Assembly: GCA_016287855.1 (NCBI GenBank)
Contig: JAEEXS010000038.1
Span: forward strand, 1 to 13,834
Direction: 5' to 3'
Length of the DNA stretch: 13,834 nt
Origin: Clostridia bacterium
GTDB lineage: Bacteria > Bacillota > Clostridia > TANB77 > RGIG9151
The notes under the pieces were generated by a model. That model searched no databases, was not told the origin of the DNA, and saw nothing but the letters and a program-made list of their open reading frames with translations. Of the stretch, positions 1 to 13,834 are shown piece by piece. Both the position numbers and the translations under genes were made by a program. Position 1 is the first letter of the stretch, and each line of letters opens with the position of its first letter.

Positions 1-1
1 C

Positions 2-1201
2 GCCACCCTGGTCCTCATAGGACTCAATCGGCTTTCCTGCTCCACCCTGGTCCTCATAGGACTCAATCGGCTTTCCTGCTCCACCCTGGTCCTCGTAGGA
101 CTCAATCGGCTTTCCTGCTCCACCCTGGTCCTCGTAGGACTCAGTCGGCTTGCCAGGGACTCCGGGGTCCTCGTAGGACTCAGTCGGCTTGCCAGGGACT
201 CCGGGATCCTCGTAGGATTCACCACCGATGGTGCCGGGAGCGGTACCTTCATCCTCACCAAGAGGACGCCTGGGGTTGGGGTTCCAGCCGGAAGGCGGAT
301 TCCATCCACCAGAGGGCTGCGGCTTGTAACCGCAGATTTTGCATTCTCCGTAGCGGTTGAAGTCATGGCGCTCCAGCTTGGACTCCTGCTCTACGCCGAG
401 CAGAATCCCGCAGTCCTTACAATAGGTGTAAACCAGGCGGGAGATGATATGCCCATCTTCAGGAGCATCGGGATATACTCCCTGGCACTCCCATTCGCTA
501 TACTCATAACGAGTATGCTTGTGCTTGCAGGGCTCAGCGGTGGGGGTAGGCGTGGGTTCAGCGGTGGGGGTAGGCGTGGGTTCAGCGGTGGGGGTAGGCG
601 TGGGCTCAGCGGTGGGGGTAGGCGTGGGTTCAGCGGTGGGTTCGGGCGTGGGTTCAGGCGTGGGCTCCGGAGTGGGTTCGGGGGTAGGTTCGGGAGTCGG
701 CTGCGGAGTCACCGGAACGTAAATGATAATCTTTTCCGGCTCGGGCGGCTTTTTGTAGCCACACCGATCGCACACGTCATCGTCCCCGAAGTCATGACCC
801 GGTTCTACCGTGGTCCTCGTCGCCACCCATATGGTCTCACCACAATCGCCGCACTTCGCCCCTGCGTAGATATGATATTCCACGCAGGCGTCCTCCGTAC
901 CGACGATAATCGGGTCGGAGGTATAGTCCACCAATTCGTTGATGTCGTAGTGGATGTGCTGGCAGTCGTCGATGAGATTCAGATCCGGGGCAGTGCGTGC
1001 GAGCTGAAGATCGGACAGCTGCTTGCGCAGACCGTCGATAACAACTTTGCAGTCGCATTCGGCTTCGACCTTCCCGCAAACGGAGCACACGGGTTCGGCC
1101 TTCTCACCGTGGATATGATGCACGAGGCACCAAACCACGTGGCCCAGCAGGGCCAGGCACAGGATAACCAGGATAATTGTCAAAATGGGACGTCTCTTCA
1201 T
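2..1201 (-). CDS. Membrane-anchored/exported Cys-rich repeat protein. The 5' end is complete and the 3' end runs off the left window edge (400 codons visible). Not in the supplied ORF track.
   Basis: I checked every + strand triplet in register 2 mod 3 from 2 to 1201 and found no tta/cta/tca, so the minus frame is open for 400 codons. The ATG is at 1201..1199, with SD GAAAGGAGGA ending 9 nt upstream. The N-terminus MKRRPILTIILVILCLALLG is a basic-then-hydrophobic signal/anchor. Next come CSVCG..CDC, a CQH..CGDCG..HDF..CDRCGYKK module, a (EPTP)n/(AEPTPTPT)4 linker, a second module CKH..CKDCG..HDF..CKICGYKP, and then 13-aa ESYED repeats. Residues 1-150 align with the neighbouring 147-aa protein. 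Confidence 0.8.
   Translation of the reverse strand, partial: MKRRPILTIILVILCLALLGHVVWCLVHHIHGEKAEPVCSVCGKVEAECDCKVVIDGLRKQLSDLQLARTAPDLNLIDDCQHIHYDINELVDYTSDPIIVGTEDACVEYHIYAGAKCGDCGETIWVATRTTVEPGHDFGDDDVCDRCGYKKPPEPEKIIIYVPVTPQPTPEPTPEPTPEPTPEPTPEPTAEPTPTPTAEPTPTPTAEPTPTPTAEPTPTPTAEPCKHKHTRYEYSEWECQGVYPDAPEDGHIISRLVYTYCKDCGILLGVEQESKLERHDFNRYGECKICGYKPQPSGGWNPPSGWNPNPRRPLGEDEGTAPGTIGGESYEDPGVPGKPTESYEDPGVPGKPTESYEDQGGAGKPIESYEDQGGAGKPIESYEDQGGAGKPIESYEDQGG
3..236 (-). repeat. 39-bp head-to-tail tandem repeat, 6 units visible and truncated by the window edge. It encodes 13-aa units GKP(I/T)ESYED(Q/P)G(G/V)(A/P).
   Basis: Units start at 3, 42, 81, 120, 159 and 198. Units 1 and 2 are identical, and unit 3 differs by one a>g change. 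Units 4-6 diverge in their second half. The period is a multiple of 3 and in frame with CDS 2..1201. Confidence 0.9.
533..712 (-). repeat. 24-bp tandem repeat x4 (533-628) followed by seven degenerate 12-bp units (629-712). It encodes a Pro/Thr/Glu linker, (AEPTPTPT)4 then (EPTP)n.
   Basis: The units ttcagcggtgggggtaggcgtggg at 557-580 and 581-604 are identical. Those at 533-556 and 605-628 differ only at the first base. The array is in frame with CDS 2..1201. Confidence 0.9.
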
Positions 1202-1326
1202 TTTAGAACGTCCTCCTTTCATTATTTTTTTATATAAACCGATGTCAGCCCCATCGGATTCCAATGAAAAGGATATATTAAACATCCATCTCCCTTACAA
1301 GGGAGATTAAATCTATTTTTTCAGAC
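1202..1326 (-). promoter_or_regulatory. ~125-nt 5' leader of CDS 2..1201 with two hairpins.
   Basis: Hairpin 1 has an 8-bp stem, 1288-1295 / 1300-1307 (minus-strand RNA AUCUCCCU-UGUA-AGGGAGAU). Hairpin 2 has a 6-bp stem, 1239-1244 / 1252-1257, with a loop containing GGGCU. The SD is at 1211-1220. The leader is homologous to leader 1932..2055. The TSS position is inferred from the -10 box only. Confidence 0.5.
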
Positions 1327-1332
1327 ATTATC

Positions 1333-1361
1333 ATTATACCACATTATTATTTTTTTTGCAA
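1333..1361 (-). promoter_or_regulatory. SigA-type promoter with extended -10: TTGCAA-17 nt-TGgTATAAT.
   Basis: On the minus strand the -35 TTGCAA is at 1361..1356, the TGg at 1341..1339 and the TATAAT at 1338..1333. Confidence 0.6.
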
Positions 1362-1454
1362 CTAGTTATGTATACAGCTTGTCCTTATTCTTCTAATATT
1401 GCATAATAGTGCCATTTCCGCAATATTAAAATAATAAATATTTTTTTGTAAAAT

Positions 1455-1480
1455 AATACACCGGGGGCTGCCGGTGTATT
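1455..1480 (-). terminator. Rho-independent terminator after CDS 1488..1931.
   Basis: A 10-bp stem AATACACCGG / CCGGTGTATT (1455-1464 / 1471-1480) with a 6-nt loop. On the minus-strand RNA it is followed by AUUUUAC. It lies 8 nt past the stop codon. Confidence 0.7.
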
Positions 1481-1487
1481 GTAATGT

Positions 1488-1931
1488 TTATGAAATTTTA
1501 GTGTATCCGCATTCGATGCATTCGCCGTTTTCATTGAAATTATGAGAAATCTCGAACTCTTTGAGGGTTACCCATATATCTTCCCCACACTTATTGCATT
1601 TGTAAATTCTATCCACAGTATATGTGTAGCACACATTTTTTTCAAAAACATGTGTCGGGTAGGACTTCCACTCATCAATAAGGACTTCCCGCTCAGTGCG
1701 CGGATGCTGGCATTTTTCAATACTGTCCACATGTATCTCGCTATTTCCTAGTTGCTTCTCAGCAATAGATTCACAATAGGTGCATTTGTATTCCATCTGT
1801 CTACCACAAACAGGGCATGTAGCTTCCTTAAGCTTTACAGCAATGCTGGTATTGCACCCCTGCAAACCCAGACTCAGGATAACCACCAAAATAATCAGTA
1901 GCCAGCAAACAAAAGCACGACTATTTTTCAT
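1488..1931 (-). CDS. Small exported Cys-rich protein (147 aa), possible lipoprotein, and a paralog of the N-terminal 150 aa of CDS 2..1201.
   Basis: ORF-track entry 1488..1943. I prefer the ATG at 1931 because the SD AAAGGTGGA ends 7 nt upstream, and the track's first ATG lies inside that SD. The N-terminus is MKNSRAFVCWLLIILVVILSLGLQGC, a signal peptide with a lipobox-like LQGC. It carries CPVCG..CTYC, CQH, and CNKCG-x13-HNF-x5-CIECGYTK. Confidence 0.75.
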   Translation of the reverse strand: MKNSRAFVCWLLIILVVILSLGLQGCNTSIAVKLKEATCPVCGRQMEYKCTYCESIAEKQLGNSEIHVDSIEKCQHPRTEREVLIDEWKSYPTHVFEKNVCYTYTVDRIYKCNKCGEDIWVTLKEFEISHNFNENGECIECGYTKIS

Positions 1932-2055
1932 TCCGACATCCACCTTTCACAAATTCATTATGTTGTATATAATGTCGATACCCAAGCCCAGTACCAACTT
2001 ATATTTAAAACGTCCAGTTCTCTTACAAAAGATCTTTAATATATGTTTAAACGCG
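1932..2055 (-). promoter_or_regulatory. ~124-nt 5' leader of CDS 1488..1931, homologous to leader 1202..1326.
   Basis: Hairpins lie at equivalent positions. One is 2019-2023 / 2028-2032 with the same UGUA loop. The other is 1977-1981 / 1991-1995 with a GGGCU-containing loop. Each stem needs one G.U pair that exists only in the minus-strand RNA. Confidence 0.45.
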
Positions 2056-2061
2056 CATTAT

Positions 2062-2089
2062 ATTATATCACACTCTCAGTTTTTTTCAA
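2062..2089 (-). promoter_or_regulatory. SigA-type promoter with extended -10: TTGAAA-16 nt-TGaTATAAT.
   Basis: On the minus strand the -35 TTGAAA is at 2089..2084, the TGa at 2070..2068 and the TATAAT at 2067..2062. Confidence 0.6.
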
Positions 2090-2112
2090 CTAATTATGTG
2101 CACTTTTTATAC

Positions 2113-2143
2113 AAAAAGACACCGGTGCTACCGGTGCCTTTTT
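2113..2143. terminator. Bidirectional rho-independent terminator ending the ABC-ABC-yitT operon.
   Basis: The stem is GACACCGG / CCGGTGCC (2118-2125 / 2131-2138) with one mismatch and a 5-nt loop. It is flanked by AAAAA (2113-2117) and TTTTT (2139-2143). Confidence 0.75.
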
Positions 2144-2197
2144 AATTTCAGAAATTGATCATCTTAGAAGTTTTATAACAGCTTTCCTTATTATGAT

Positions 2198-3085
2198 TTA
2201 CGTAGTCGGACGCTGGAAAAACCAGCCTTCTACTCTATTTGAATTAATAACATCAATAAACGCATCTGGATCTGCTTTTTTTATATTCTTTATAACCAAA
2301 TACATCTCATCTCCAGCAACAACCGAATACACTAAATTCTTTTCTCCTCCTTTATAAAGCCCTTTACCTTTAAAAAGCGTTGCTCCATGGTTTGTAGTTT
2401 CTCTTATTTCTTTATATACATCATCTGGCTTGTCCGTAATTATAAACAACGTCTGCTTTTGATATCTTCTATATATCAAGTGAATTACTTCTGTACCTAC
2501 ATATTGATAAATTATAGAGTATAATGCTTTTTCCCAACCATATACAAGACCTGCAACGGTAAGTAACGCAATATTACCCAGTAAAATATAATTAAATGCA
2601 TCAATTCCATATTTTTTAGAGCATAGTGCAGAAATAAAATCTGTTCCGCCTGTTGTCGCTTCAGCATTTAAACATATCGCTATAGCAAGTCCATTAATTA
2701 TTCCACCAAAAACTGAGGTAAGCAATAAATCACCGGTTATTTCGTAATGAGGAAATAAATCTACAACTAAACCTGTTAACACTATGCTTACAATAGATAA
2801 AATTGCAAATCGTTTTCCTATATACTTAAAACATATAACCGCTAAAATAAGGTTTAATGGAATATTTATAAAGCTATATGGAACATAAATATTTAAAAAC
2901 GTATCAAAAAGCTTTTGAAGTAAAATTGCAATTCCAACGAAACCTCCAGGGATAAGTCCACCAAAATATACAAAGCTATTTAGGTTAAGACCCATGATAA
3001 AAGCGCCTATACCGACCATTATGGCCCTACCAATATCCCGCTTAACTTTATTTTCTTTTTCCCAAGGATGTACTAGTTCGTCCAT
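2198..3085 (-). CDS. YitT-family integral membrane protein with a C-terminal DUF2179-type domain.
   Basis: A 295-aa ORF with a multi-TM N-terminal part (GGLIPGGFVGIAILLQ) and a soluble C-terminal domain (TLFIITDKPDDVYKEI...GATLFKGKGLY...). The SD AGGAAGGGA lies upstream. It starts 20 nt after the ABC stop, so it is probably co-transcribed. Confidence 0.85.
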   Translation of the reverse strand: MDELVHPWEKENKVKRDIGRAIMVGIGAFIMGLNLNSFVYFGGLIPGGFVGIAILLQKLFDTFLNIYVPYSFINIPLNLILAVICFKYIGKRFAILSIVSIVLTGLVVDLFPHYEITGDLLLTSVFGGIINGLAIAICLNAEATTGGTDFISALCSKKYGIDAFNYILLGNIALLTVAGLVYGWEKALYSIIYQYVGTEVIHLIYRRYQKQTLFIITDKPDDVYKEIRETTNHGATLFKGKGLYKGGEKNLVYSVVAGDEMYLVIKNIKKADPDAFIDVINSNRVEGWFFQRPTT

Positions 3086-3105
3086 ATTATCCCTTCCTTA
3101 TACAA

Positions 3106-5004
3106 TTATTCTAATTCAAACACTCCTGTATACAATTGATAATACTTGCCTTGCTCACTAAGTAATTTTTCGTGAGTACCACGTTCTATTATTCTTCCAT
3201 GCTCTAATACCATAATAACATCCGAGTTCTGGACTGTAGAAAGTCTATGAGCAATTACAAAAACTGTTCTTCCTTTCATAAGCGAATCCATACCCTTTTG
3301 AACTATTGATTCTGTTCTTGTATCTATACTTGACGTTGCCTCATCTAAAATCATAACCGGTGGGTCTGCAACTGCTGCTCTGGCTATTGCAATTAGCTGT
3401 CTTTGGCCTTGAGATAAGTTTGCACCATCTCCTGTTATAACAGTATTATATCCATTAGGAAGTCTATTTATAAAGCCATCTGCATTAGCAAGCTTTGCAG
3501 CCTTAACAACTTCAGCATTACTTGCATCTAATTTACCATATCGAATATTTTCCATAATAGTACCAGTAAACAAATGAGTATCTTGTAAAACAATTCCTAA
3601 AGAACGCCTTAAGTCGCTTTTCTTTATCTTATTTATATTAACCCCATCATATCTAATTTTTCCATCGGCTAAATCATAAAATCTATTAATAAGATTTGTA
3701 ATTGTTGTTTTGCCCGCACCTGTAGCTCCAACAAAAGCGACCTTTTGACCAGGCTCTGCGAATAATTCTATATCATGCAAAACTAATTTATTTTCTTCAT
3801 ACCCAAAATCTACATCAAAGAAACGTACATCACCTTTCAATTCAACATAGGTAGTTGTGCCATCTTTATGAGGATGTTTCCAAGCCCAAATTCCAGTACG
3901 CTTTTTAGACTCAATTAAATGACCCTCTTTATTATATTTTGCATTAACTAATGTTACATATCCCTCATCTTTTTCAGACTCCTCATCAATAAGGCTAAAA
4001 ATTCTCTCTGCTCCAGCTAGTGCCATTGCTATATAACTTATTTGTTGGGCTACTTGGCTTATTGGTCTTATAAAGCTCTTACTTAAATTTAAAAACGATG
4101 CTATTGCTCCTAAGGTTAACGCATTTACTCCATTTATTGCTAATGCACCACCGACAATTGCTATTAATACATATTGCAAGTTGCCAAGATTAGCAATAAC
4201 CGGCATTAAAATAATTGAATACTTATTGGCCTTATCTGCATTTTCCCTTAATATTTCATTACGTCTATCAAACTCGGCTTTTGCTTGTTCTTCATGACAA
4301 AAAACTTTTACAACCTTCTGACCATTGATTAACTCTTCAATATATCCATTCAAACTTCCAAGTGATTCTTGTTGTTTCATAAAATATTTGGCAGATTTAC
4401 TTCCAATTTGAGAAGTCGTAAAAAACATTAAACCAATTATTACCAAAACCATCAATGTAAGCCATGGGCTAAGATAAATCATAGCTGCAAACACTGTTAC
4501 TATCGTTATTAATGAAGAAAAAACTTGTGGAACACTTTGAGATATCATCTCTCTTAATGCATCTGTATCGTTTGTATAAATACTCATTATATCTCCATAA
4601 GCATGAGTATCAAAATACTTTATAGGTAACGTTTCCATGTGAGAAAACATATCATCTCTAATTTTCTTCAAAATTCCCTGTGTAATTACTGCCATAATTC
4701 TAGTTTGTAAGAACGTTGAAAAAATACCTATTAGATATATTCCACCCATAATTAAAATTGCCTTAAGCAATCCAGTAAATACAGGATTTGCTTCTAATGC
4801 GAGTGGTGCGATATAATCATCAATTAATACCTGTAAGAAAAGTGAACCTAATACTCCAGCAACTGCACCTGCTAAAATACATACTAAAACTACCCCAAGT
4901 AACACTTTATATGTACCTGTTATATATGATAATAATCTTCTTATTGTATTTTTATTTAGCTTTTTTAATCCGTCAAAACCACCTGGCCTTCTACCTCTTG
5001 GCAT
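3106..5004 (-). CDS. ABC exporter permease/ATPase fusion. This is the subunit carrying the consensus ATPase site of a heterodimeric pair (LmrD/YheH/EfrB-like).
   Basis: Six-TM domain plus an NBD. Walker A is GATGAGKTT, Walker B with catalytic Glu is VMILDEATSSID, and the signature LSQGQ is non-canonical. I prefer the ATG at 5004; the track's first codon at 5007 is GTG. It overlaps the upstream ABC gene by 14-17 nt. Confidence 0.93.
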   Translation of the reverse strand: MPRGRRPGGFDGLKKLNKNTIRRLLSYITGTYKVLLGVVLVCILAGAVAGVLGSLFLQVLIDDYIAPLALEANPVFTGLLKAILIMGGIYLIGIFSTFLQTRIMAVITQGILKKIRDDMFSHMETLPIKYFDTHAYGDIMSIYTNDTDALREMISQSVPQVFSSLITIVTVFAAMIYLSPWLTLMVLVIIGLMFFTTSQIGSKSAKYFMKQQESLGSLNGYIEELINGQKVVKVFCHEEQAKAEFDRRNEILRENADKANKYSIILMPVIANLGNLQYVLIAIVGGALAINGVNALTLGAIASFLNLSKSFIRPISQVAQQISYIAMALAGAERIFSLIDEESEKDEGYVTLVNAKYNKEGHLIESKKRTGIWAWKHPHKDGTTTYVELKGDVRFFDVDFGYEENKLVLHDIELFAEPGQKVAFVGATGAGKTTITNLINRFYDLADGKIRYDGVNINKIKKSDLRRSLGIVLQDTHLFTGTIMENIRYGKLDASNAEVVKAAKLANADGFINRLPNGYNTVITGDGANLSQGQRQLIAIARAAVADPPVMILDEATSSIDTRTESIVQKGMDSLMKGRTVFVIAHRLSTVQNSDVIMVLEHGRIIERGTHEKLLSEQGKYYQLYTGVFELE

Positions 5005-6730
5005 CACTCACACCCCTTTCCATTTGAGAATAATAAACATCTTGATAAATTTTATTAGTTCTTAATAATTCATCATGTGTTCCAACAGCTACAACTCTTC
5101 CTTCATCTAAAATTATAATCTTATCTGAATTCATAACAGAGCTTACACGTTGAGCGATAATAAACTTAGTTGTTTCTGGTATGTACTCTGAAAAAGCCTT
5201 CCGTATAAGGCTATCTGTCTTTGTATCTACCGCACTAGTAGAATCGTCTAAAATTAAGATTTTCGGTTTTTTAAGCAACGCTCTAGCAATACATAACCTT
5301 TGTTTCTGACCGCCAGAAACATTAGTTCCGCCTTGTTCTATATGAGTATCATATTTATCTGGGAATTTCTCTATAAACTCATCCGCACAAGCAAGCTTAC
5401 ATACTTCTTTTATCTCATCATCAGTTGCGTTTTCATTTCCCCATCTTAAGTTTTCTTTTATTGTTCCCGCAAACAACTCATTTTTTTGTAGAACCATAGA
5501 AACCGCATTACGAAGAGTTTCAATATCATACTTTTGCACGTCAATTCCACCAACTAAAACTTTTCCTTTAGTTGCATCGTACAACCTAGGAATTAGTTGA
5601 ACAAGAGTCGTTTTAGACGAACCAGTACCACCTAAAATTCCTACTGTTTCTCCAGATTTTATATCTAGATTAACCTTAGCTAAACAAAGCTTTTTCTTAT
5701 CTTTTGCATAACTAAAGCTAACATTCTCAAACTTAACACTTCCATCTTGTACGTAAAGTATCGGGTCTTTAGGATTTTTAATATCTGTTTCTTCAGATAA
5801 AATCTCACATACCCTTTCAGCAGAAGCTCGTGAAATAGTAATAATTATTAATATTATAGATAACATCATAAGACTAATTAGAATTTGCATTATGTATGTA
5901 ATTAAAGTCATAAGACTTCCAGTCGTAAGATCTCCTGCAACAATTAGTCTTGCTGCAAACCAAGAAATAAGCAACATACAAGAATAAATAACAAACTCCA
6001 TAAGAGGTGCATTTAATGCTACTAATTTTTCAGCCTTTACAAAGTCTTTATATATTTCGCCAGATACAGTATTAAACTTATTTTCCTCAAAATCTTCTCT
6101 TACATACGATTTTACTACTCTAATTCCATGTAAATTTTCTTGAACAACATTATTTAATTTATCATAGGTCTTAAATACTCGCTCAAAAATAGGATGCGCT
6201 TTCATAGCAATAAAACATAGCCCAAATCCTAGTATAGGAATTGCAGCTAAAAATATAAGCGATATTTTTAAGTTTATATACATAGCCATAACCAAAGAAA
6301 ATATAAGCATTAGCGGTGCTCTTACTGCTACTCTAATAATCATTTGGAATGCCATTTGAACATTAGTAACGTCTGTTGTAAGTCTTGTTATAATACTAGA
6401 TGTTGAAAATTTATCTATATTACTAAAAGAAAAATTTTGGATATTGTAGTACATATCATGTCTTAAATTTGCAGCAAATCCAGTTGAAGCCTTTGCTGCT
6501 GCTCTACCTGCCAAAATTCCAAACAATAACGAAAAAAATGACAAAATAACTAGTATTATTCCATACTTTATTATCTCGTTCATATTTCCTGCATCAATGC
6601 CCTTATCTATTAAACTCGCCATTAAAAGAGGAATTATTACCTCTAACACTACTTCAATACTTACATATGTAGGTGCAAGTAATGTCGTAGTTTTATATTG
6701 TCTTATACATTTTGCTAATTTTTTTATCAT
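4991..6730 (-). CDS. ABC exporter permease/ATPase fusion. This is the subunit carrying the degenerate ATPase site (LmrC/YheI/EfrA-like).
   Basis: Walker A is GGTGSSKTT, the signature VSGGQ is canonical, and Walker B ILILDDSTSAVD has Asp in place of the catalytic Glu. I prefer the ATG at 6730 (MIKKLAKC...). The track start at 6757 is a GTG that coincides with the predicted TSS of promoter 6765..6793. Confidence 0.93.
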   Translation of the reverse strand: MIKKLAKCIRQYKTTTLLAPTYVSIEVVLEVIIPLLMASLIDKGIDAGNMNEIIKYGIILVILSFFSLLFGILAGRAAAKASTGFAANLRHDMYYNIQNFSFSNIDKFSTSSIITRLTTDVTNVQMAFQMIIRVAVRAPLMLIFSLVMAMYINLKISLIFLAAIPILGFGLCFIAMKAHPIFERVFKTYDKLNNVVQENLHGIRVVKSYVREDFEENKFNTVSGEIYKDFVKAEKLVALNAPLMEFVIYSCMLLISWFAARLIVAGDLTTGSLMTLITYIMQILISLMMLSIILIIITISRASAERVCEILSEETDIKNPKDPILYVQDGSVKFENVSFSYAKDKKKLCLAKVNLDIKSGETVGILGGTGSSKTTLVQLIPRLYDATKGKVLVGGIDVQKYDIETLRNAVSMVLQKNELFAGTIKENLRWGNENATDDEIKEVCKLACADEFIEKFPDKYDTHIEQGGTNVSGGQKQRLCIARALLKKPKILILDDSTSAVDTKTDSLIRKAFSEYIPETTKFIIAQRVSSVMNSDKIIILDEGRVVAVGTHDELLRTNKIYQDVYYSQMERGVSDAKR

Positions 6731-6764
6731 CTTAAAACCCACTTTCCAAAAAATCACTCATACT

Positions 6765-6793
6765 ATTATATTTGTTTATGCAGATAATATCAA
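6765..6793 (-). promoter_or_regulatory. SigA-type promoter of the ABC-ABC-yitT operon: TTGATA-17 nt-TATAAT.
   Basis: On the minus strand the -35 is at 6793..6788 and the -10 at 6770..6765. Confidence 0.65.
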
Positions 6794-6876
6794 TATTATT
6801 TGCCATTTTTTTATCTCAAAAATATTTTTAAAAAATTTTTAATATTTAATATTTTTCGACAAAATATAATTTTAGC

Positions 6877-6904
6877 TTGTGATATATTCCATTTATGGTA
6901 TTTA
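6877..6904 (+). promoter_or_regulatory. Candidate promoter for the 23-codon ORF: TTGTGA-16 nt-(TGg)TATTTA.
   Basis: The -35 is at 6877-6882, TG at 6896-6897 and the -10 TATTTA at 6899-6904. The -10 is weak in very AT-rich DNA, so this is tentative. Confidence 0.35.
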
Positions 6905-6935
6905 TTACCAAATGTTAAAGAAAGGAGGTATAATA

Positions 6936-7007
6936 ATGAACAGAGCGTTAAAGATAACTCTTTTGGTAATTTTATTTTACATACTTCTTATTGAGGTGTG
7001 TATGTAA
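6936..7007 (+). CDS. 23-aa hydrophobic small protein MNRALKITLLVILFYILLIEVCM (candidate small membrane peptide). Below the size cut-off of the ORF track.
   Basis: The SD AAAGGAGG (6921-6928) lies exactly 7 nt before the ATG at 6936, and the TAA is at 7005-7007. A strong terminator starts 12 nt downstream. It is the only + strand unit in the window with a complete set of expression signals. Confidence 0.45.
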   Translation: MNRALKITLLVILFYILLIEVCM

Positions 7008-7018
7008 TTTTATCAAAG

Positions 7019-7057
7019 AAAAAGCGGGGACCAACACTCCCCGCTTTTTCTTTTTTT
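7019..7057. terminator. Bidirectional rho-independent terminator, shared by the small + ORF and the convergent acyl-CoA synthetase gene.
   Basis: The stem is GCGGGGA / TCCCCGC (7024-7030 / 7038-7044) with a 7-nt loop. An A-run lies at 7019-7023 and T-runs at 7045-7049 and 7051-7057. Confidence 0.85.
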
Positions 7058-7131
7058 ATGAACAGAACATTTATAGGCTTTCGCCTTATGTTATTATTAT
7101 ACTCTAGTATCTATAATAATGTCAATAATTT

Positions 7132-8829
7132 CTATTGTTGGTTTTGTCCAACTTTCGCTCTCTTAATCTTATTAGTAGTAGTTTTTTCAAAAGCTTCTTT
7201 CCTTATAACCACCCTTGAAATTCTCTTATAGAACGGTAGCTTTGCGCAAACTTTAGCAATATCCGCTCTTACAGTAGCTTCAACATCTTCTATTCCTAAA
7301 TCTTTAACTGTCTCTTCATTTAATACAACTTCAGCACAAAGACCAGTTTCAGAACCATTTTCATCCTTAACTCCATATACAACAACCTCAGAAATATATG
7401 AGATTGAAGATATATAAAGTTCAAGTTCCTCAGGGAAAATATTCTTACCATTCTCTAAAACAATAAGGTTCTTCTTTCTACCAGTTATCATGAGTTGACC
7501 TTTTTCGTTTATCTTACCATAGTCTCCAGTATTAAACCAACCATCTTTTAATACTTCTGCAGTAAGATCTGGTCTTTTATAGTAACCTAACATTACTATA
7601 TCGCCTTTAACACAGATTTCCCCTTCTCCATTTTCATTCTTATTTTCAATTTTTACTTCACAGCAAGGAAGTATAACACCAACAGTTGCTGGATCATTAA
7701 ATTTAAGTTGGTTTACACTAACTAACGGAGAACATTCTGTAATTCCATAACCATTTATTAAAATTATTCCAATAGACTCAAAAAACTTAGCAAGTTCAGG
7801 TCTTAAAGGTGCACCCCCGCAAACTATCTCAATTAAATTACCACCAAAAGCTTCAAGAACTGATTTAAACAATTTCCTTCTTACGTCTATTCCAACCTTC
7901 CTAAGCGCATTACTAATAGCTATCATTACTTTTAAAGCGCCGGCTTTTCCAGACTTTTCAGCAGTGCTCCATATCTTTTTATAAAAAGCTTCTGCGAAGG
8001 CAGGAACAAGTAATATATAATCAGGTTTATAGAATTTTAAATTCTTTTCAACTGTCCTTAAATTCTCATTTATGCAAAGAGTTGCACGTCTTTGTATTGC
8101 TATTAATATTCCGCAAGTTGACTCATAAGTATGATTATAAGGCAAAACAGACAAACATCTTGTAAAAATATCTGCTACTCTTAAACCATGATAAACACAA
8201 CTTATTAAATTATGTTCTGTAAGCATAACTCCTTTAGCGATACCTGTAGTTCCAGAAGTATATACAAGTAATTTTAGCTCATTATCCTTGGTAGACAATT
8301 TATCATATTCGTTATTTCCATTAGAATATATCTCTCTACCCTTTTCTTTAAGTTTATTATATGATAAAAATTTTCCTTCATCTTCTTCTCTAGCGAAGCC
8401 AATAAATTGTTTGATATTAGGCATTTTATCTGCTAATTCCATAAATTCTTTTTCATATTTTTCAGCATAGAAAAGAATCGTACTATCGCTGTCATTTACA
8501 ACATTTATAATATCATCTATAGGAAGTTCTTTATCGACAGGAACCAAAACAGAATCGCTTTTTAGTACAGTAAGATAAACTGTAATCCAGTCATAACTAT
8601 TATCTCCAATAACTGCTATATGCGTGTTTTTAATGCCCATATTTAATAAAGCATTTCCAAGCGCATACGTATCATTTTGGGCTTCTTTATAGGTAACATC
8701 TACTACTTCTTCACCTTTTCTATATTTATAAGCAATATTATCTCCTGAATCTTTAACCGCTTTCTCTAGTAAATCCTTAACTGAGCTAATTTCTATAGCA
8801 TCGTTATATTTAATCTTATGTTTTCCCAT
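7132..8829 (-). CDS. AMP-forming long-chain acyl-CoA synthetase (COG1022 / FadD-like AMP-binding enzyme).
   Basis: A 565-aa ORF with AMP-binding motifs YTSGTTGIAKGV, GYGITECSP and WFNTGDYG...TGRKKNLIVLENGKNIFPEELE. The SD GGAGGGA lies 6 nt before the ATG at 8829. Confidence 0.9.
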   Translation of the reverse strand: MGKHKIKYNDAIEISSVKDLLEKAVKDSGDNIAYKYRKGEEVVDVTYKEAQNDTYALGNALLNMGIKNTHIAVIGDNSYDWITVYLTVLKSDSVLVPVDKELPIDDIINVVNDSDSTILFYAEKYEKEFMELADKMPNIKQFIGFAREEDEGKFLSYNKLKEKGREIYSNGNNEYDKLSTKDNELKLLVYTSGTTGIAKGVMLTEHNLISCVYHGLRVADIFTRCLSVLPYNHTYESTCGILIAIQRRATLCINENLRTVEKNLKFYKPDYILLVPAFAEAFYKKIWSTAEKSGKAGALKVMIAISNALRKVGIDVRRKLFKSVLEAFGGNLIEIVCGGAPLRPELAKFFESIGIILINGYGITECSPLVSVNQLKFNDPATVGVILPCCEVKIENKNENGEGEICVKGDIVMLGYYKRPDLTAEVLKDGWFNTGDYGKINEKGQLMITGRKKNLIVLENGKNIFPEELELYISSISYISEVVVYGVKDENGSETGLCAEVVLNEETVKDLGIEDVEATVRADIAKVCAKLPFYKRISRVVIRKEAFEKTTTNKIKRAKVGQNQQ

Positions 8830-8854
8830 ACTAGTTCCCTCCGTTTGTATTTTT

Positions 8855-8879
8855 ATATCTAGTTTTAAAAACTAGATAT
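8855..8879. promoter_or_regulatory. 25-bp perfect palindrome ATATCTAGTTTT-A-AAAACTAGATAT. Candidate repressor operator (or leader hairpin) at about +11..+35 of the acyl-CoA synthetase transcript.
   Basis: The 12-bp arms 8855-8866 and 8868-8879 are exact reverse complements. The palindrome lies between the consensus promoter and the SD. Confidence 0.5.
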
Positions 8880-8895
8880 CTCGTTTTTCAAAACC

Positions 8896-8924
8896 ATTAT
8901 ATTTTATTACAAAATATATGTCAA
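8896..8924 (-). promoter_or_regulatory. Perfect-consensus SigA promoter TTGACA-17 nt-TATAAT for gene 7132..8829.
   Basis: On the minus strand the -35 is at 8924..8919 and the -10 at 8901..8896. Confidence 0.7.
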
Positions 8925-8941
8925 TATACTGTATCAATTTT

Positions 8942-9802
8942 TTAAATAATATTTCCCATTAATGCAGTATATTTGCTGTCCTTACTTAGTTTCTTATCAC
9001 AACTAGCCACAATAAGCTTTTTTATAGCCTTATTTCCCTCTTTCATATGTATAACACACTCATCTACTAAAAAACCAATTACAACTTCCTTATCTCGACT
9101 CACAGTAGAAATAGGAATAATTCTTAATCGCTTTTTCCATTTTTCTTCAAAGTCAAAATCATTCTTATGTATCTGCTCTATAATTTCATCTGGCACAAGT
9201 TCTTTCATAACTTCCTTTTCAACTATAATTACTGGATAGCCTGTAATAGTTTCCTTTACGTTATGTCCTGAGTCTAGAAAGGCTTTAATTAGAACTTTTT
9301 TATCTAAAATTTTAATTTCTACATCATATAAAAGCTCTTGCAAATTTAGTCTACTTCTTAAAAACACACCTATCCACTTTATTATAATAATACTAACTGC
9401 TGTGCCTAATACTATCATTAAAACTGGAAATTCCTCTACATACAATACTCCGCCCTCAGAAATCATACTAAAATTAAGTAAAAACGCCAGTCCAAAGCTT
9501 GCCCCACCTATTAAAAAAGTAATTCCAAAGAAAAAAACGATTGCTTTCAAAAAATCTTTTATTCCTCGTATATTAAAGCCCACAAAAACCATAGTTACCG
9601 CCAAAATAATTTTTAACGATAATAATTGCTCACTATAAAAACCAAATATATAACTAAAAATAACGTATATTGCTCCAATACCCGCACTTATCCCGAGTTT
9701 ATACCATTTGCTTTTTACTCCGGAAAATTTAGATGTTGCATAGAGTATAATATAGTTCATTATAAAGTTTTCTAAAAACATTTGATCCACATATATAGTC
9801 AA
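8942..9802 (-). CDS. spoIIGA: SpoIIGA-family membrane aspartic peptidase (pro-sigma-E processing peptidase family), with no sigma-factor gene adjacent.
   Basis: A 286-aa ORF. The N-terminus MTIYVDQMFLENF matches the SpoIIGA-type M-x-IY-[LV]-D start. It has ~5 TM segments, the catalytic-type motif FLDSGHN, then RIIPISTV and a C-terminal KLSKDSKYTALMG. These parallel B. subtilis SpoIIGA as I recall it. The start is TTG at 9802, with SD GGAGGTG 8 nt upstream. Confidence 0.85.
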   Translation of the reverse strand: MTIYVDQMFLENFIMNYIILYATSKFSGVKSKWYKLGISAGIGAIYVIFSYIFGFYSEQLLSLKIILAVTMVFVGFNIRGIKDFLKAIVFFFGITFLIGGASFGLAFLLNFSMISEGGVLYVEEFPVLMIVLGTAVSIIIIKWIGVFLRSRLNLQELLYDVEIKILDKKVLIKAFLDSGHNVKETITGYPVIIVEKEVMKELVPDEIIEQIHKNDFDFEEKWKKRLRIIPISTVSRDKEVVIGFLVDECVIHMKEGNKAIKKLIVASCDKKLSKDSKYTALMGNII

Positions 9803-9840
9803 AGAGAGTACACCTCCATATATAAAGTATACTCTCTTTG
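9800..9840 (-). promoter_or_regulatory. Hairpin enclosing the spoIIGA-like translation initiation region.
   Basis: An 11-bp perfect inverted repeat, 9800-9810 / 9830-9840, with a 19-nt loop. The SD lies in the loop and the TTG start codon (9802..9800) is the last 3 nt of the 3' arm. Confidence 0.45.
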
Positions 9841-9867
9841 CTCGTCAAAATATGTCATTTCTTGCTA

Positions 9868-11010
9868 TTAAAATTCAACAGGTGGAGTGTCACTAACTCC
9901 AAAATAAAACTTTATAGCCTCAACAATACGCATAGAAGCTTTTCCATCTCCATACGGATTTGTTGCCTTATTCATCTTTTCATACTCTTCCTTATCATCT
10001 AAAAGAAGCTTTGCTAAATTATATATTTTTTCTTCTTCTACTCCAGCCATACGAACAGTTCCAGCCTCTACTGCTTCTGGTCTTTCAGTTTCTTGTCTTA
10101 ATACTAAAACTGGCTTCCCAAGAGCCGGAGCTTCCTCTTGAAGTCCACCTGAATCAGTCATAACCATATAAGAGCGATCCATTAAATTATGTAACTCCTG
10201 AACATCTAATGGTGCTATTAAATGAACATTTTTTATATCTCCTAAAATTTCATTTGCCGGTTCACGAACTGCAGGATTTAAATGAACTGGATAAACCACT
10301 TCAACATCATTATATTCCTCTGCAATTCTTTTTATTGCCTTAAATATATTTCTCATAGGTTCGCCCAAATTCTCTCTTCTATGAGCGGTAACCAATATTA
10401 TTCGCTTATTAAAATCTACCCCTTTTAATTCTTCAGTCTTAAACTCATAAGAACTATTTACAGTTGTTTTTAATGCATCTATTACAGTATTTCCGGTTAC
10501 ATACATTCCATCTTCATTAATATTTTCTTTTAATAAATTATTCTTATTATTGCTTGTAGGACAAAAATGCAAATCTGCCATTTTTCCAACTAAAGTTCTA
10601 TTCATCTCTTCAGGGAAAGGAGAATATTTATCTCCCGTTCTAAGCCCTGCTTCAACATGTCCAATCTTAGTTTGTTTATAAAACGCTGCAAGGGCTCCAG
10701 CAAAAGTAGTTGTTGTATCTCCATGGACTAATACTATATCTGGCTTTGCATCCTCTATAACCTTCTCTATTCCGTTTAATACACTAGATGTAATTTGAGA
10801 TAATGTTTGACGTTCTCTCATTACGTTCAAATCATAATCTGGTACAATTTTAAATATATCTAATACTTGATCAAGCATCTGTCTATGTTGAGCAGTTACG
10901 CAAACTATCGTTTCAATTTCTTCATTCTTTTTAAGTTCATTTACAAGCGGTGCCATTTTTATTGCTTCTGGCCTTGTGCCGAAAATAGTCATTACTCTAA
11001 TCTTTTTCAT
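9868..11010 (-). CDS. mnaA: UDP-N-acetylglucosamine 2-epimerase (non-hydrolysing).
   Basis: A 380-aa ORF with the motifs IFGTRPEAIKMAPL, GHVEAGLRT and MTDSGGLQEEAPALGKPVLVLR. Confidence 0.95.
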   Translation of the reverse strand: MKKIRVMTIFGTRPEAIKMAPLVNELKKNEEIETIVCVTAQHRQMLDQVLDIFKIVPDYDLNVMRERQTLSQITSSVLNGIEKVIEDAKPDIVLVHGDTTTTFAGALAAFYKQTKIGHVEAGLRTGDKYSPFPEEMNRTLVGKMADLHFCPTSNNKNNLLKENINEDGMYVTGNTVIDALKTTVNSSYEFKTEELKGVDFNKRIILVTAHRRENLGEPMRNIFKAIKRIAEEYNDVEVVYPVHLNPAVREPANEILGDIKNVHLIAPLDVQELHNLMDRSYMVMTDSGGLQEEAPALGKPVLVLRQETERPEAVEAGTVRMAGVEEEKIYNLAKLLLDDKEEYEKMNKATNPYGDGKASMRIVEAIKFYFGVSDTPPVEF

Positions 11011-12079
11011 CTTTTTTGTCCCCTTTTTCTGTGTTATTCATTTCTCCCATATATCTACTACCTGCTATTATAAATATTACTATTGTCAAAATTAATAAAG
11101 TAAATTTCCAAATTCCTGTTTCGATTAAAACTATTCCCGCCAATCCCAAAAATGCACTTACTATGTATAAAATAATAACAGACTGTTTTTGAGATAATCC
11201 GGAGTCCAATAATCTATGATGTAAATGACCTCTGTCTGCCTCCATAGGTGACTTTCCGCTTAGTACTCTTCGTATTATTGCAAAAGCTGTATCAAAAACA
11301 GGTAATCCTAAAACAACTAATGGAACAATTATTGCAATTGCTGTATAGCTTTTTACTAGGCCCATTATAGATATTGTTCCTAAAGTAAAGCCTAAAAACG
11401 CAGAACCAGTTTCACCCATAAATATCTTTGCTGGATTAAAGTTAAACGGTAAAAATCCCATAGTTGCACCAGCAAGACCCGCTGCTAATATTATTGTTTG
11501 AGGTTGGTTTAAATATACCGCTATAAACAATAACGATAGTGATGAAATAGTTGCAACTCCGGCAGCTAGTCCATCAAGTCCATCTATAAAATTAATAGCA
11601 TTTGTAATTCCAACTATCCAAACCATTGTAATAGGAATCGACCAAGCACCTAATTCAAATATACCACCTTCAACAAATGGATTAGTTAAAAATTCGACTC
11701 TAACCCCAAAACCTACAACTACAGCCGCTGCTATAATTTGAAATATCAATTTAGTCCAAGGTCTAATTGGCTTTATATCATCCCATACACCCGCTATTTC
11801 TATAACTACAATTCCAAGTATTAAACCTAAAATTTTATTATCAAAAAACGCTTGATCAAAACCCGCCATAACAAAATGATAGATCAAGGCCATTATAAAG
11901 CCTAAAATTATAGCAATTCCTCCCATAAGAGGTGTTGGATTTTTGTGAACTCTTCGCTCGTCCTTAGGTACATCTACTGCTTTTAACTTTACAGCTAAAT
12001 TTTTTACAAATGGCGTCATAAAAAATGACACTATAAAACCAATCGAAAAAATCATTATTATGTTTATATAATCGTTCAT
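10997..12079 (-). CDS. tagO: Undecaprenyl-phosphate N-acetylglucosamine-1-phosphate transferase (TagO/WecA, MraY-like glycosyltransferase family 4).
   Basis: A 360-aa polytopic membrane ORF with VDVPKDERRVHKNPTPLMGG and NAINFIDGLDGLAAG. It overlaps the mnaA start by 14 nt. Confidence 0.9.
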   Translation of the reverse strand: MNDYINIIMIFSIGFIVSFFMTPFVKNLAVKLKAVDVPKDERRVHKNPTPLMGGIAIILGFIMALIYHFVMAGFDQAFFDNKILGLILGIVVIEIAGVWDDIKPIRPWTKLIFQIIAAAVVVGFGVRVEFLTNPFVEGGIFELGAWSIPITMVWIVGITNAINFIDGLDGLAAGVATISSLSLLFIAVYLNQPQTIILAAGLAGATMGFLPFNFNPAKIFMGETGSAFLGFTLGTISIMGLVKSYTAIAIIVPLVVLGLPVFDTAFAIIRRVLSGKSPMEADRGHLHHRLLDSGLSQKQSVIILYIVSAFLGLAGIVLIETGIWKFTLLILTIVIFIIAGSRYMGEMNNTEKGDKKDEKD

Positions 12080-12106
12080 TTAAGGTATCTCCTATCCTTT
12101 TGTAAA

Positions 12107-12541
12107 TTATATTAAATCCAATTTGTCCATACGTTCCTTATACTTTCCACCAAGGCACTCCGTTTCTAGCCAAATTTTCAAATACTCTATTGCTTCTTCT
12201 TCGCTTATAAACCTACCTGGGAAACATATTACATTTGTATCGTTATGTTGCCTCGAAAGCACTGCAAAATCTTTACAAGTACAGTTCACTGCTCGTACAC
12301 CTTTAAACTTATTTGCTGTAATACTAACTCCAACTCCACTTCCACAAACTAAAACTCCTCGTTCACACTCACCATTAGACACAGCTTTAGAAGCCGGAAT
12401 CGCATAATCTGGGAAACCATCATCTTTATCGAAAGTATAAGCTCCAAAATCCTTAACTTCATAACCCTCTTTCAATAAATATTCTTTTAATTTCTCCTTT
12501 AATGGGAACCCAGCATGATCAGCTCCAATTGCAATTTTCAT
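12107..12541 (-). CDS. rpiB: Ribose-5-phosphate isomerase B (RpiB/LacAB family).
   Basis: The motifs are MKIAIGADHAGFPLKEKL and GVLVCGSGVGVSITANK. I prefer the ATG at 12541, with SD GGGAGTG 9 nt upstream. The track's start at 12553 is a GTG inside that SD. Confidence 0.93.
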   Translation of the reverse strand: MKIAIGADHAGFPLKEKLKEYLLKEGYEVKDFGAYTFDKDDGFPDYAIPASKAVSNGECERGVLVCGSGVGVSITANKFKGVRAVNCTCKDFAVLSRQHNDTNVICFPGRFISEEEAIEYLKIWLETECLGGKYKERMDKLDLI

Positions 12542-12559
12542 AATAGGAATCACTCCCTT

Positions 12560-13834
12560 CTATTTTTTAGCCAATTCAGCGTGTATCAATTTCATTTCTT
12601 CCTGTCTTTTTACCTTCTTAGTAGTAGTCTTTATCAACTCATCATAAGTAGTAATAAGTTTTTGAATATGCTTATATCTAGGGAAAGTAGTATTAATTTC
12701 TCTAATTTTATCCCACAATATTTTTTCTAGTTCTTCATCAGTTTTATCGGCATATTTTTCTTTTATAATCTCTTTATCAAAAACTGCTTTTACTGAAACA
12801 ATTATATCATTATCTTTCTTATCTTCAAGTCCAAACACCATACATTCTTGGACTAAATCAATTCTATTTACTATTGTTTCTATTTCTTCAGGGAATACCT
12901 TTTTACCATTTCTAAGAACTAGCATATTTTTTATTCTTCCGGTTAAAAATAACATCCCATCTTTATCAAAATAACCTAAATCTCCAGTATAAAACCAACC
13001 ATCTTTTAAGACTTCGGCTGTTAATTCTGGCATTTCATAATACCCAAGCATTATATTAGGACCTTTTACTCTTACTTCTCCTATGCCCTTCTCATCTTTA
13101 TCTACAATTTCAATTGTATCGTTTATCATAGGGAAACCTACTGAACCCTTTTTCATAGCCTTAAAGTTTTCACCCGCAATTACAGGAGAAGTTTCACTTA
13201 AACCATATCCTTGAACTGTTGTAATACCCAAATCAGTAAAGCCTTTTAGATATAAAGGATCTGCTGCTGCGCCTCCAGAAACAATCATCCGTAATTCGCC
13301 ACCTAAGGCATCCAGTATAGGCTTAAATAGCTTTCTTCTAATATCTATATGAAATTTTAATAAACAATTACTAATCTTAATTGCATTTTTTATCGTCTTG
13401 CTCTTACCTTGTTTATCTATTTCTCTCATTATTGCTTTATATATAGATTCTAGTAATATAGGCACACCAACAAAAACAGTAACTTTATACTCCTTTAAGT
13501 TCTGTTTAATATATCTTAAACCGTCTGGGAACGTATTTCTTACACCATCTGCAAGCATCAAAGCCATACATGTTGAGCCAAATATATGATGAAGTGGTAA
13601 AAATGCAATATTGGTATCTGTTGGTCTAATATCTTCCGTGCACTGAAGTGCATAGATATTAGAAGCTATATTCTTTTGAGAAAGCATTACTGCTTTTGCT
13701 TGTGAAGTAGTTCCAGAGGTAAATAATAAGATATTCATAGCATGTTCATCTATTTTATAATCCACATATTCATTCTTTCCAGCTTTTAACTTAGTTCTTC
13801 CGGCTTCGGTCAATTCTTTAATATTTTTATATCC
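12560..13834 (-). CDS. AMP-forming long-chain acyl-CoA synthetase (COG1022-like). The N-terminus lies beyond the right window edge.
   Basis: The motifs are FTSGTTSQAKAV, GYGLSETSP and WFYTGDLG...TGRIKNMLVLRNGKKVFPEEIE. The track's start at 13813 is a TTG. The frame stays open through 13834 (..GYKNIKELTEAG..), and the ~140 N-terminal residues typical of this family are missing. Confidence 0.9.
   Translation of the reverse strand, partial: GYKNIKELTEAGRTKLKAGKNEYVDYKIDEHAMNILLFTSGTTSQAKAVMLSQKNIASNIYALQCTEDIRPTDTNIAFLPLHHIFGSTCMALMLADGVRNTFPDGLRYIKQNLKEYKVTVFVGVPILLESIYKAIMREIDKQGKSKTIKNAIKISNCLLKFHIDIRRKLFKPILDALGGELRMIVSGGAAADPLYLKGFTDLGITTVQGYGLSETSPVIAGENFKAMKKGSVGFPMINDTIEIVDKDEKGIGEVRVKGPNIMLGYYEMPELTAEVLKDGWFYTGDLGYFDKDGMLFLTGRIKNMLVLRNGKKVFPEEIETIVNRIDLVQECMVFGLEDKKDNDIIVSVKAVFDKEIIKEKYADKTDEELEKILWDKIREINTTFPRYKHIQKLITTYDELIKTTTKKVKRQEEMKLIHAELAKK

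Follow-up and report, generated by a model that had tools for sequence, protein, structure and literature searches.

How can a single gene hold a base composition far from that of the chromosome in which it lies? This question is raised by the left end of a 13,834-nucleotide stretch of DNA (hereafter the window), nearly the whole of a 13,836-nt contig (JAEEXS010000038.1) from a Clostridia bacterium of the gut or rumen that is known from metagenomes only. A minus-strand open reading frame (ORF), g1 (1..1201, -), starts at the ATG at 1201 and remains open at the left end; positions 1-1201 contain 59.4% guanine plus cytosine (GC), against 32.1% in positions 1202-13834. An earlier inspection of the letters, here called the sequence-only reading, had noticed that the composition changes at this start codon and had proposed replacement of the coding part by a xenolog from a GC-rich Firmicute, the edge of a GC-rich island, or a chimeric assembly. 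The present analysis indicates that a single-gene GC islet with native flanks is almost certainly real. The best explanation as a whole is a persistent force acting in situ on the coding body of a gene family, a reading to which we give a probability of roughly 0.45.

All the hand counts of the sequence-only reading were recomputed and matched. Positions 1081-1200 have 56.7% GC and 241-300 have 63.3%; the g1 leader (1202-1330) has 32.6%, the paralogous leader of the neighbouring gene g2 (1932-2060) has 33.3%, and the sampled stretches of the backbone range from 29 to 37%. All other 1200-nt segments have a mean GC of 0.320 (standard deviation, SD, 0.018; maximum 0.357), which places 1-1201 about 15 SD out. 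The strongest contrast between left and right falls at 1200-1219, within about 30 nt of the ATG. In 30-nt steps, GC is 0.67 at 1141-1170, 0.40 at 1171-1200 (the first 10 codons) and 0.27 at 1201-1230. The claim that composition changes at the coding boundary and that the leader is AT-rich is thus upheld, and the DNA that separates the terminator of g2 from the promoter of g1 is AT-rich as well. One correction concerns the 3' edge, which lies outside the window: in two longer contigs described below (L001 and L027), the GC-rich tract passes the stop codon by ~125-140 nt, up to the terminator.

The excess pervades the reading frame. GC at the first, second and third positions of codons (GC1, GC2 and GC3) is 0.63, 0.49 and 0.66 in g1, against about 0.44, 0.33 and 0.20 in nine backbone genes. 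GC3 lies between 0.61 and 0.72 in every protein segment, including the transmembrane anchor and the non-repetitive domains; since these domains reach 0.66-0.72, neither amino-acid composition nor Pro/Thr repeats can account for the GC excess. Codon choice in g1 is nearly the inverse of that of the host backbone. The codons CTG (52% in g1, 1% in the backbone), CCC (52% and 0%, or 0 of 101), TCC (83% and 1%), ATC (56% and 4%) and CAG (100% and 19%) are preferred, and TTA, CCA and CAA, which reach 50%, 39% and 81% in the backbone, are absent from g1 (0% each). At fourfold degenerate sites, the shares of A, C, G and T are.09,.40,.23 and.28 in g1 and.40,.06,.10 and.45 in the backbone. The enrichment is therefore strongly strand-asymmetric, with A/(A+T) at 0.26 versus 0.47 and G/(G+C) at 0.37 versus 0.62, although overall the coding strand of g1 has G and C shares of.29 and.30 and no net GC skew. 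Ordinary translational selection for C-ending two-fold codons cannot explain the CTG, CAG, AAG, CCC, TCC and CGC of g1; for orthologs with a mild enrichment, for example those at loci L015 and L020, it could account for some of the excess.

Independent contigs extend the view beyond the window. An exact look-up of g2 retrieved contig JAEEGH010015565 (L001, 16.5 kb), 99% identical to window positions 1-8483, in which g1 is complete at 7282-8709 with 475 amino acids, the first 400 codons of which lie in the window. Directly after g1 and its 3' untranslated region (UTR), GC in L001 is 0.29-0.33, and genes for GHL10/Cu_amine_oxidN1, Cu-oxidase_4 and DZR proteins follow. GC likewise falls back to 0.29-0.33 in L027, taken from a 378-kb scaffold, and L025, L026 and L028 are alike. 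The order yitT - g2 - g1 - GHL10, together with the GC step, is found in JAEEGH, GCA_016648615, JAEEGL and four ENA/Logan contigs; at least eight independent contigs agree, drawn from NCBI, JGI, ENA and Logan and from different projects and assemblers. The neighbours (yitT, ABC exporters, GHL10, Cu-oxidase_4 and DZR genes) keep the same synteny in related species, whose orthologous loci also show the GC step. Comparison with related strains and species thus places the step at the same point each time and reveals neither an island nor a chimera. At the g1 border there were no mobility genes, no tRNA and no direct repeats, and relatives do not lack the gene. The window's contig stops inside a 39-nt tandem repeat of g1 (window 1-221; ESYEDQGGAGKPI), which explains the break in the assembly.

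The protein family to which g1 belongs was delimited by a HMMER scan of 1.84 billion representative proteins, using a profile built from the window's three domain copies. The scan identified a ~75-aa Cys/His unit (C.H...C..CG...H.F...C..CGY) as an unannotated repeat, present in up to 26 tandem copies in Firmicute surface proteins of 1-2.6 thousand residues. Choline-binding repeats occur in one scanned protein with this repeat (P0001), and one member of the cluster is annotated Mogibacterium sp.; the unit is probably an extracellular metal-binding repeat. A subfamily shares the full architecture of g1, namely an anchor with 'GHxxWC..H', a CxxC motif, a domain, a Pro/Thr (PT) linker, a second domain and an acidic tail. 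In L015, L020 and L022 the positional ortholog lies directly upstream of GHL10 - Cu-oxidase_4 - DZR, and in L006 directly downstream of yitT. In the whole protein set, g1 has its nearest relatives in these positional orthologs, which belong to the low-GC clade and are 26-34% identical, and no closer relative was found outside that clade in the protein libraries searched, which also lack the g1 alleles themselves.

A protein word-index gave no match for the N-terminal 163 aa; the full-length alignment returned low-complexity matches to the PT linker, and the linker-free alignment returned P0094 only. A blastn search of positions 1-2200 against a phage database yielded only a spurious 70-nt match to the PT repeat. 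A literature search for a precedent in Clostridia found none.

The enrichment is a property of the family and is graded. GC3 of the family genes is 0.67 in L003, 0.65 for g1 (window and L001), 0.63 in L022, 0.49 in L006, 0.40 in L020 and in L024, 0.36 in L021, 0.34 in L015 and 0.32 in L023. The genes next to them have GC3 of 0.13-0.33, and every family gene with sequenced neighbours exceeds them, in host genomes of 31-36% GC. A relative by domain, L018, lies on a 62% GC contig, and its composition is that genome's own. At fourfold sites, sense-strand A/(A+T) is 0.24-0.39 in the family (about 0.47 in L006) versus 0.36-0.52 in the neighbours. Across nine non-independent genes, GC1 rises with GC3 (rho 0.80), as does the content of Gly/Ala/Arg/Pro (rho 0.73); from this joint rise, the pressure appears to operate at the nucleotide level and to leak into the protein.

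The coding body also evolves at a pace of its own. Among four lineages, the GHL10 proteins are 72-79% identical, versus 27-44% for the family proteins; both group L020 with L022 and L001 with L015, as judged from pairwise identities of four taxa only. Between strains whose flanks have a synonymous divergence (dS) of 0.03-0.08, the whole of g1 has a dS of 0.67 and its first 150 codons a dS of 1.0, and where flank dS is 0.27-0.43, g1 dS is about 2 or unmeasurable. The g1 values are 10-30 times those of the flanks, and the nonsynonymous divergence over the synonymous one (dN/dS) is roughly 0.15-0.4. The L003 allele of g1 is a mosaic, 50% identical over the first 150 aligned codons and ~93% in domain 2, and its leader is mosaic too, with a g1-like 5' half and a g3-like 3' half (g3 being a further paralog in L001). 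Based on these alignments, g1 is a cassette-like hypervariable locus, with a body exchanged between strains as mosaic alleles. The paralog g2, by comparison, is nearly invariant between strains (dS 0.06 versus 0.27-0.43 for yitT, ABC and GHL10). Between the window and L001, single-nucleotide polymorphisms (SNPs) per kb number 0-2.5 in g1/g2, with about 1.5-2.5 for the two genes together, 27 in yitT and 59 in the intergenic region 6758-7131. The low SNP density in g1 and g2 suggests that the g2-g1 segment has spread recently by recombination.

In spite of this synonymous saturation, all g1 alleles keep a GC3 of 0.60-0.69 in every region compared, so the composition is stationary. A relic of one ancient import that is still ameliorating is ruled out on the same grounds. 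At conserved residues, the synonymous differences between L020 and its sister L022, whose GC3 values differ by 0.23, comprise 59 with a weak base (A or T, W) in the former and a strong one (G or C, S) in the latter, versus 19 of the opposite kind. When polarised with outgroups, W-to-S changes outnumber S-to-W changes by 24:4 in L022 and by 25:4 in the window lineage; directional change in two lineages implies that strong enrichment arose at least twice. All alleles and orthologs have their composition step at the start codon. On balance, we consider it probable that the GC-richness is maintained in situ rather than derived from a recent single import.

The body is bracketed by conserved regulatory elements. 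The upstream regions of g1 and g2 share 74% nucleotide identity, which bears out the proposal that their leaders are paralogous. Each begins with the terminator that ends the gene before it and also contains an ACATAA box, a TG-extended promoter of the sigma-A type that is close to consensus and a 130-nt leader with two hairpins and a strong ribosome-binding site. The g1 promoter (1333..1371, -) consists of the ACATAA box, a -35 TTGCAA, a 17-nt spacer and a TG-extended -10 TATAAT; its 5'UTR (1202..1332, -; 33% GC) is structured and has a paralogous or orthologous counterpart in the leader of every family gene. Within it, hairpin P2 (1288-1307, -) is followed by a GGAUGU motif, and hairpin P3 (1239-1257, -) carries the loop GGGCUGA; the ribosome-binding site in the leader is AGGAGG. 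In the leader and promoter of g2 (1932..2099, -), P2 and P3 show compensatory changes, and the promoter (2062-2099, -) comprises the ACATAA box, TTGAAA, a 16-nt spacer and TATAAT. The g2 terminator (1453..1482, -; ACACCGGCAGCCCCCGGTGT plus a U-run) is homologous to those after g1, g3 and all the orthologs, and the terminator GCACCGGCAGCACCCGGTGC is almost invariant across species. The near-consensus promoter and ribosome-binding site suggest high expression of g1.

Across 29 loci, the only genes preceded by the promoter pattern ACATAA-N4-TTGMAA-N16-18-TAYAAT are those of the family. Leaders are ~130-150 nt long across the family (window 1202-1371(-) and 1932-2099(-), L001 12150-12341, and those of L003, L006, L015, L020, L021, L022, L024 and L027); the 11 examined share P2, a GGAYGU motif and P3. 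The P3 loop G(G/U)GCU(G/U) is kept, and the stem sequence varies but remains complementary, covarying completely. The sister species has, in addition, an outer helix (AAGUGG/CCACUU) that encloses both hairpins. The window's leaders and five orthologous loci had no Rfam match at an E of 1 or below, and the family leader is a candidate new cis-regulatory RNA. An exact 21-mer of the leader had no match in GTDB representative genomes, and a degenerate leader pattern was found in three metagenome contigs only, all from one project.

At the opposite end, beyond the window's left limit, the g1 3'UTR (L001 8710-8850; L027 15320-15450) is a ~125-nt series of very stable GC hairpins ahead of the terminator (C7-GAAA-G7, GGCC-UACG-GGCC and others), with loops of the GNRA and UNCG types and a folding z of -5.2. 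It is kept between alleles whose coding regions are saturated, with one compensatory swap (GUCCC..GGGAC to GCUCC..GGAGC). This conservation, together with the compensated hairpin, indicates a functional RNA element rather than neutral DNA. Orthologs in other species lack this 3'UTR, and their terminator lies 5-12 nt after the stop codon.

How these pieces would fit together under a persistent in-situ force can be outlined as follows. The conserved promoter and AT-rich leader on the 5' side and the hairpin-rich 3'UTR and terminator on the 3' side bracket a fast-evolving body, and the GC excess would be a lasting property of the coding body of the family, extending in this species to the 3'UTR. 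The force may be selection on the transcript, if this is highly expressed, long-lived or slowly translated; in such an mRNA, hairpins at the 5' and 3' ends would give protection, the GC-rich body would offer few AU-rich sites to RNases, and the region of initiation would be AT-rich. RNase Y and RNase J, the decay enzymes of Firmicutes, prefer AU-rich RNA. Selection at the mRNA level is preferred because the enrichment is specific to the sense strand and spares the initiation region, the leader and the spacer between modules, and because hairpins are conserved at both mRNA ends alongside a consensus promoter and ribosome-binding site. Frequent allelic recombination may contribute a component of GC-biased conversion.

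Several points weigh against this explanation. The choice of mRNA-level selection as the specific force is reasoned from the pattern of enrichment and is tentative. The correlation of GC3 with GC1 and amino-acid content fits any pressure at the nucleotide level, not selection specifically. The polarised counts come from parsimony, which leans toward W-to-S changes when sites are saturated and outgroups are low in GC. To our knowledge, there is no documented bacterial case in which selection has recoded one gene by +45 GC3 points. Furthermore, the codon usage of g1 (CTG, ATC, CCC/CCG, TCC, ACC, CGC, CAG and AAG) presumably resembles that of genes from Clostridia with 55-60% GC, which is exactly what import predicts, and as the searched libraries lack even the g1 alleles, a missing GC-rich donor is weak evidence.

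The best surviving competitor to a persistent force of that kind is GC-biased gene conversion (gBGC) at a recombination hot spot, which we rate as unlikely. Diversifying or balancing selection would make allelic replacement between the conserved flanks unusually common, and mismatch repair of the heteroduplexes, which would be rich in mismatches, would favour G and C. Recombination is evident at the locus in the mosaic alleles and leader, the patchy SNP density and the presence or absence of genes between strains; the synonymous changes run from W to S, and GC1 and amino-acid content move with GC3. By calculation, a GC3 of 0.66 over a background of 0.20 needs a population-scaled bias B near 2, a value that is not out of the question. 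Precedent exists, since Lassalle et al. 2015 (PMC4450053) give higher GC3 in the recombining genes of 11 of 14 bacterial groups. Against gBGC stands its prediction of strand symmetry, given that the fourfold sites of g1 are strongly asymmetric. Although the recombining region includes the g2-g1 spacer and the leaders, these are AT-rich, and g2 is GC-enriched though nearly invariant (dS 0.06). The effects reported for bacteria amount to a few GC3 points, not 45.

Slightly less likely still is the repeated import of coding bodies from GC-richer Clostridia, anchored in the conserved leader and terminator, with the GC level of each lineage reflecting different donors or stages of amelioration. This is close to the replacement by a xenolog envisaged in the sequence-only reading, of which one half holds: conserved flanks surround a hypervariable coding sequence, the alleles are mosaic, and dS exceeds that of the flanks 10-30 times. 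Conserved flanks are also what anchored replacement needs, and the g1 alleles are far older than the backbone. Moreover, GC-rich organisms do have members of the Cys/His domain family, as L018 shows with its native composition, and g1 codon usage looks like what we assume for a Firmicute of ~57-60% GC. The other half, a donor among the high-GC Firmicutes, fares poorly, since the best matches point to positional orthologs in the low-GC clade and not to a distant GC-rich taxon (in libraries that lack the g1 alleles), and the whole family is GC-enriched. The family and GHL10 topologies agree, and the sister orthologs L020 and L022 differ by 0.23 in GC3. The step keeps to the start codon in all alleles and orthologs instead of falling at variable junctions, and donors would also need to have this AT-rich leader and this terminator. 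Synonymous saturation with GC3 still high in any case excludes a single ancient import.

A bolder version of an in-situ process holds that the leader and the 3'UTR with its terminator delimit a dedicated diversification unit, subject to an undescribed locus-targeted process. This could be a transcript-mediated or recombination-coupled mutagenesis that depletes sense-strand A, enriches GC and makes synonymous and non-synonymous change 10-30-fold faster; we regard it as improbable. In a milder variant, the members of a regulon would be deliberately written in GC-rich 'anti-host' codons, so that their mRNA lasts longer or its translation is gated. Plain locus-specific hypermutation of the DNA or transcript between leader and terminator, with a spectrum that depletes sense-strand A and enriches C and G, is more doubtful again. 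It would produce excess dS and GC together, the boundaries do match conserved elements, and sense-strand A is indeed depleted at fourfold sites in family members, with L006 the least affected. However, a search for candidate machinery within about 10 kb on either side found none, be it a reverse transcriptase, a template repeat or a silent copy; exchange of old alleles would lead one to expect both the mosaic blocks and a dN/dS of 0.15-0.4; and g2, which has the same leader and is GC-enriched, hardly varies. Finally, an assembly chimera, the edge of an island or a join of two organisms, to which the window alone lent colour by ending within the GC-rich segment with its left side out of view, can be dismissed as explanations of the step, because the same junction occurs in at least eight independent contigs, the 378-kb scaffold among them, and the longer contigs run through one GC-rich gene back into syntenic chromosomal genes of ~30% GC (L001, L027), the break itself being explained by the 39-nt repeat.

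Several known systems offer partial parallels to a GC-rich body maintained in place. The vls cassettes of Borrelia have 49.1% GC against ~28.6% for the chromosome, a difference thought to be actively maintained (PMC11499132). In both cases, a hypervariable surface-protein region stands ~20-27 GC points above an AT-rich genome (59% versus 32% for g1). Unlike vls, g1 has no silent-cassette array or second copy of any of its segments within about 10 kb on either side; the vls coding-strand skew of about 0.52 contrasts with no net skew in g1, where only the PT linker is skewed and its G-runs are antisense. Variation in g1 is seen between strains, without evidence of switching within a clone, and the gene is chromosomal with its own strong promoter and leader. 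Horizontally acquired genes and islands likewise have GC and codon usage strongly off those of the host, but g1 is a single gene with native conserved flanks at the same syntenic site in relatives, lacks mobility genes, has orthologs and paralogs enriched to graded extents and is stationary in composition across saturated alleles. As for gBGC, the likeness lies in the raised GC3 that recombining genes have and the W-to-S bias, and the difference in the +45 GC3 points and the strand asymmetry, which the model of PMC4450053 does not predict.

Two mechanisms of cassette change were considered and rejected. A target of a diversity-generating retroelement (DGR) is unsupported, as no reverse transcriptase domain appears in the neighbours' Pfam listings and no copy resembling a template repeat lies within about 10 kb. 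An integron cassette does not fit either: each module has its own consensus promoter, no integrase is present in the Pfam listings within about 10 kb, and the 3' hairpin with its U-run resembles an ordinary intrinsic terminator.

Cassette-type surface loci, such as the pneumococcal capsule locus (dexB-aliA), the S-layer cassette of Clostridioides difficile and the central region of flagellin, have conserved flanks and deeply diverged mosaic alleles older than the backbone. They differ in that they are not known for a large GC excess, and the flanks of g1 are regulatory RNA and DNA elements, not housekeeping genes. In the rare-codon regulon of bldA and TTA in Streptomyces, a small co-regulated gene set uses codons otherwise nearly unused by the genome; g1, in contrast, is recoded as a whole and not in one codon, no cognate tRNA regulator was identified, and its orthologs vary in degree. 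We place g1 among the hypervariable surface-protein cassettes, set apart by an unusual composition that is probably under active maintenance.

Gene-sized GC anomalies are usually read as horizontal transfer or misassembly. Both are unlikely for g1, given its native flanks, its graded syntenic orthologs and its stationary GC. If a maintaining force is confirmed, the locus would represent a natural experiment in which a gene is held 27 GC points (45 GC3 points) off mutational equilibrium; mRNA selection, biased gene conversion and targeted mutagenesis are candidates. This touches the long-standing question of why mutation alone does not set the GC content of bacteria (background in PMC2936526). 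The locus also brings to light three uncharacterised elements, namely the covarying family leader RNA, the conserved multi-hairpin 3'UTR and the ~75-aa Cys/His repeat without a Pfam entry.

The product of g1 is, as predicted from its sequence, a membrane-anchored Cys/His-rich, Pro/Thr-linked surface protein. From the N-terminus, it comprises a transmembrane anchor of residues 1-30 (LLGHVVWCLVHH; 1112..1201, -; GC3 0.70, with GC of 0.40 in the first ~10 codons), the CxxC..CxC motif and the first Cys/His domain (737..1111, -; GC3 0.72), the Pro/Thr linker (536..736, -), the second copy of the ~75-aa repeat (314..535, -; GC3 0.66; ~93% amino-acid identity to the L003 allele) and an acidic, Gly/Pro-rich repetitive tail (2..313, -). 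The segment with this motif and the first domain is the hypervariable part, with 50-63% amino-acid identity between the window lineage and L003, L027 and L028, which are the same or closely related strains. The tail is coded by the 39-nt (13-aa) tandem repeats and is cut by the contig end; other alleles have a different tail repeat, TGTYTDPGTTGTP. The linker is coded by 24-nt and 12-nt tandem repeats. Its repeat tract (530-709, + strand) shows runs of 3-5 G on the antisense strand, with a GC skew of +0.53; the G-runs are spaced in the manner of a G-quadruplex, and repeat number varies among alleles. Long antisense frames, such as the ORF at 365-1237(+), were set aside as the stop-poor frames expected of GC-rich DNA rather than genes.

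Searches of the g1 family against Pfam, NCBIfam and PDB gave no match above curated thresholds, only sub-threshold noise of the PT/PARP, HypA and zinc-ribbon types. A PDB sequence search with the domain profile returned zinc-finger noise only, at E above 0.2, and an AlphaFold2 model from a 3-row alignment (predicted local distance difference test, pLDDT, 53) gave no usable fold.

The paralog g2 (1488..1931, -) encodes 147 aa, with a transmembrane anchor and one Cys/His domain (1491-1835), and its protein is 31% identical to that of g1. Its coding sequence has 40.6% GC (179/441) and a GC3 of 0.43, intermediate between g1 and the backbone. The third family gene, g3 (L001 12342-12698; 118 aa), has a GC of 0.51 and a GC3 of 0.63; its promoter, leader and terminator are of the g1 type, and the 45 nt past the terminator are also identical. 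Gene content varies between strains: g2 is missing from L003, and g3 is present only in strains of the L001/L004 type. Some strains carry between yitT and g2 an extra AT-rich gene pair (616 aa and 74 aa, 4-nt overlap, 26-27% GC; L025 3785-5856, L027 10940-13011, L028 9683-11754), which has no Pfam match and is absent from the window (~2100-2197). On the backbone side, the variable region has its left edge at a terminator-like hairpin downstream of yitT (2120..2136, -).

Ordinary backbone starts with a gene for a membrane protein of the yitT family (2198..3085, -; GC 0.33, GC3 0.21), which served as a synteny anchor for the ortholog loci. The backbone encodes SpoIIGA, UDP-GlcNAc 2-epimerase, RpiB, YitT, an AMP-binding enzyme and two ABC exporters; such a gene content marks it as ordinary chromosomal DNA of what is evidently a spore-forming Firmicute of ~32% GC in the class Clostridia. 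Genes for small DZR zinc-ribbon membrane proteins lie near the family locus (L001 11176-11670(-) and 12849-13307(+); also in L020, L022, L025 and L027), so the neighbourhood is enriched in Cys-rich envelope proteins. The usual operon partner of spoIIGA in Bacilli and Clostridia is sigE; here, the gene 112 nt downstream of spoIIGA (8942-9802, -) is that of the AMP-binding enzyme (7132-8829, -), not sigE.

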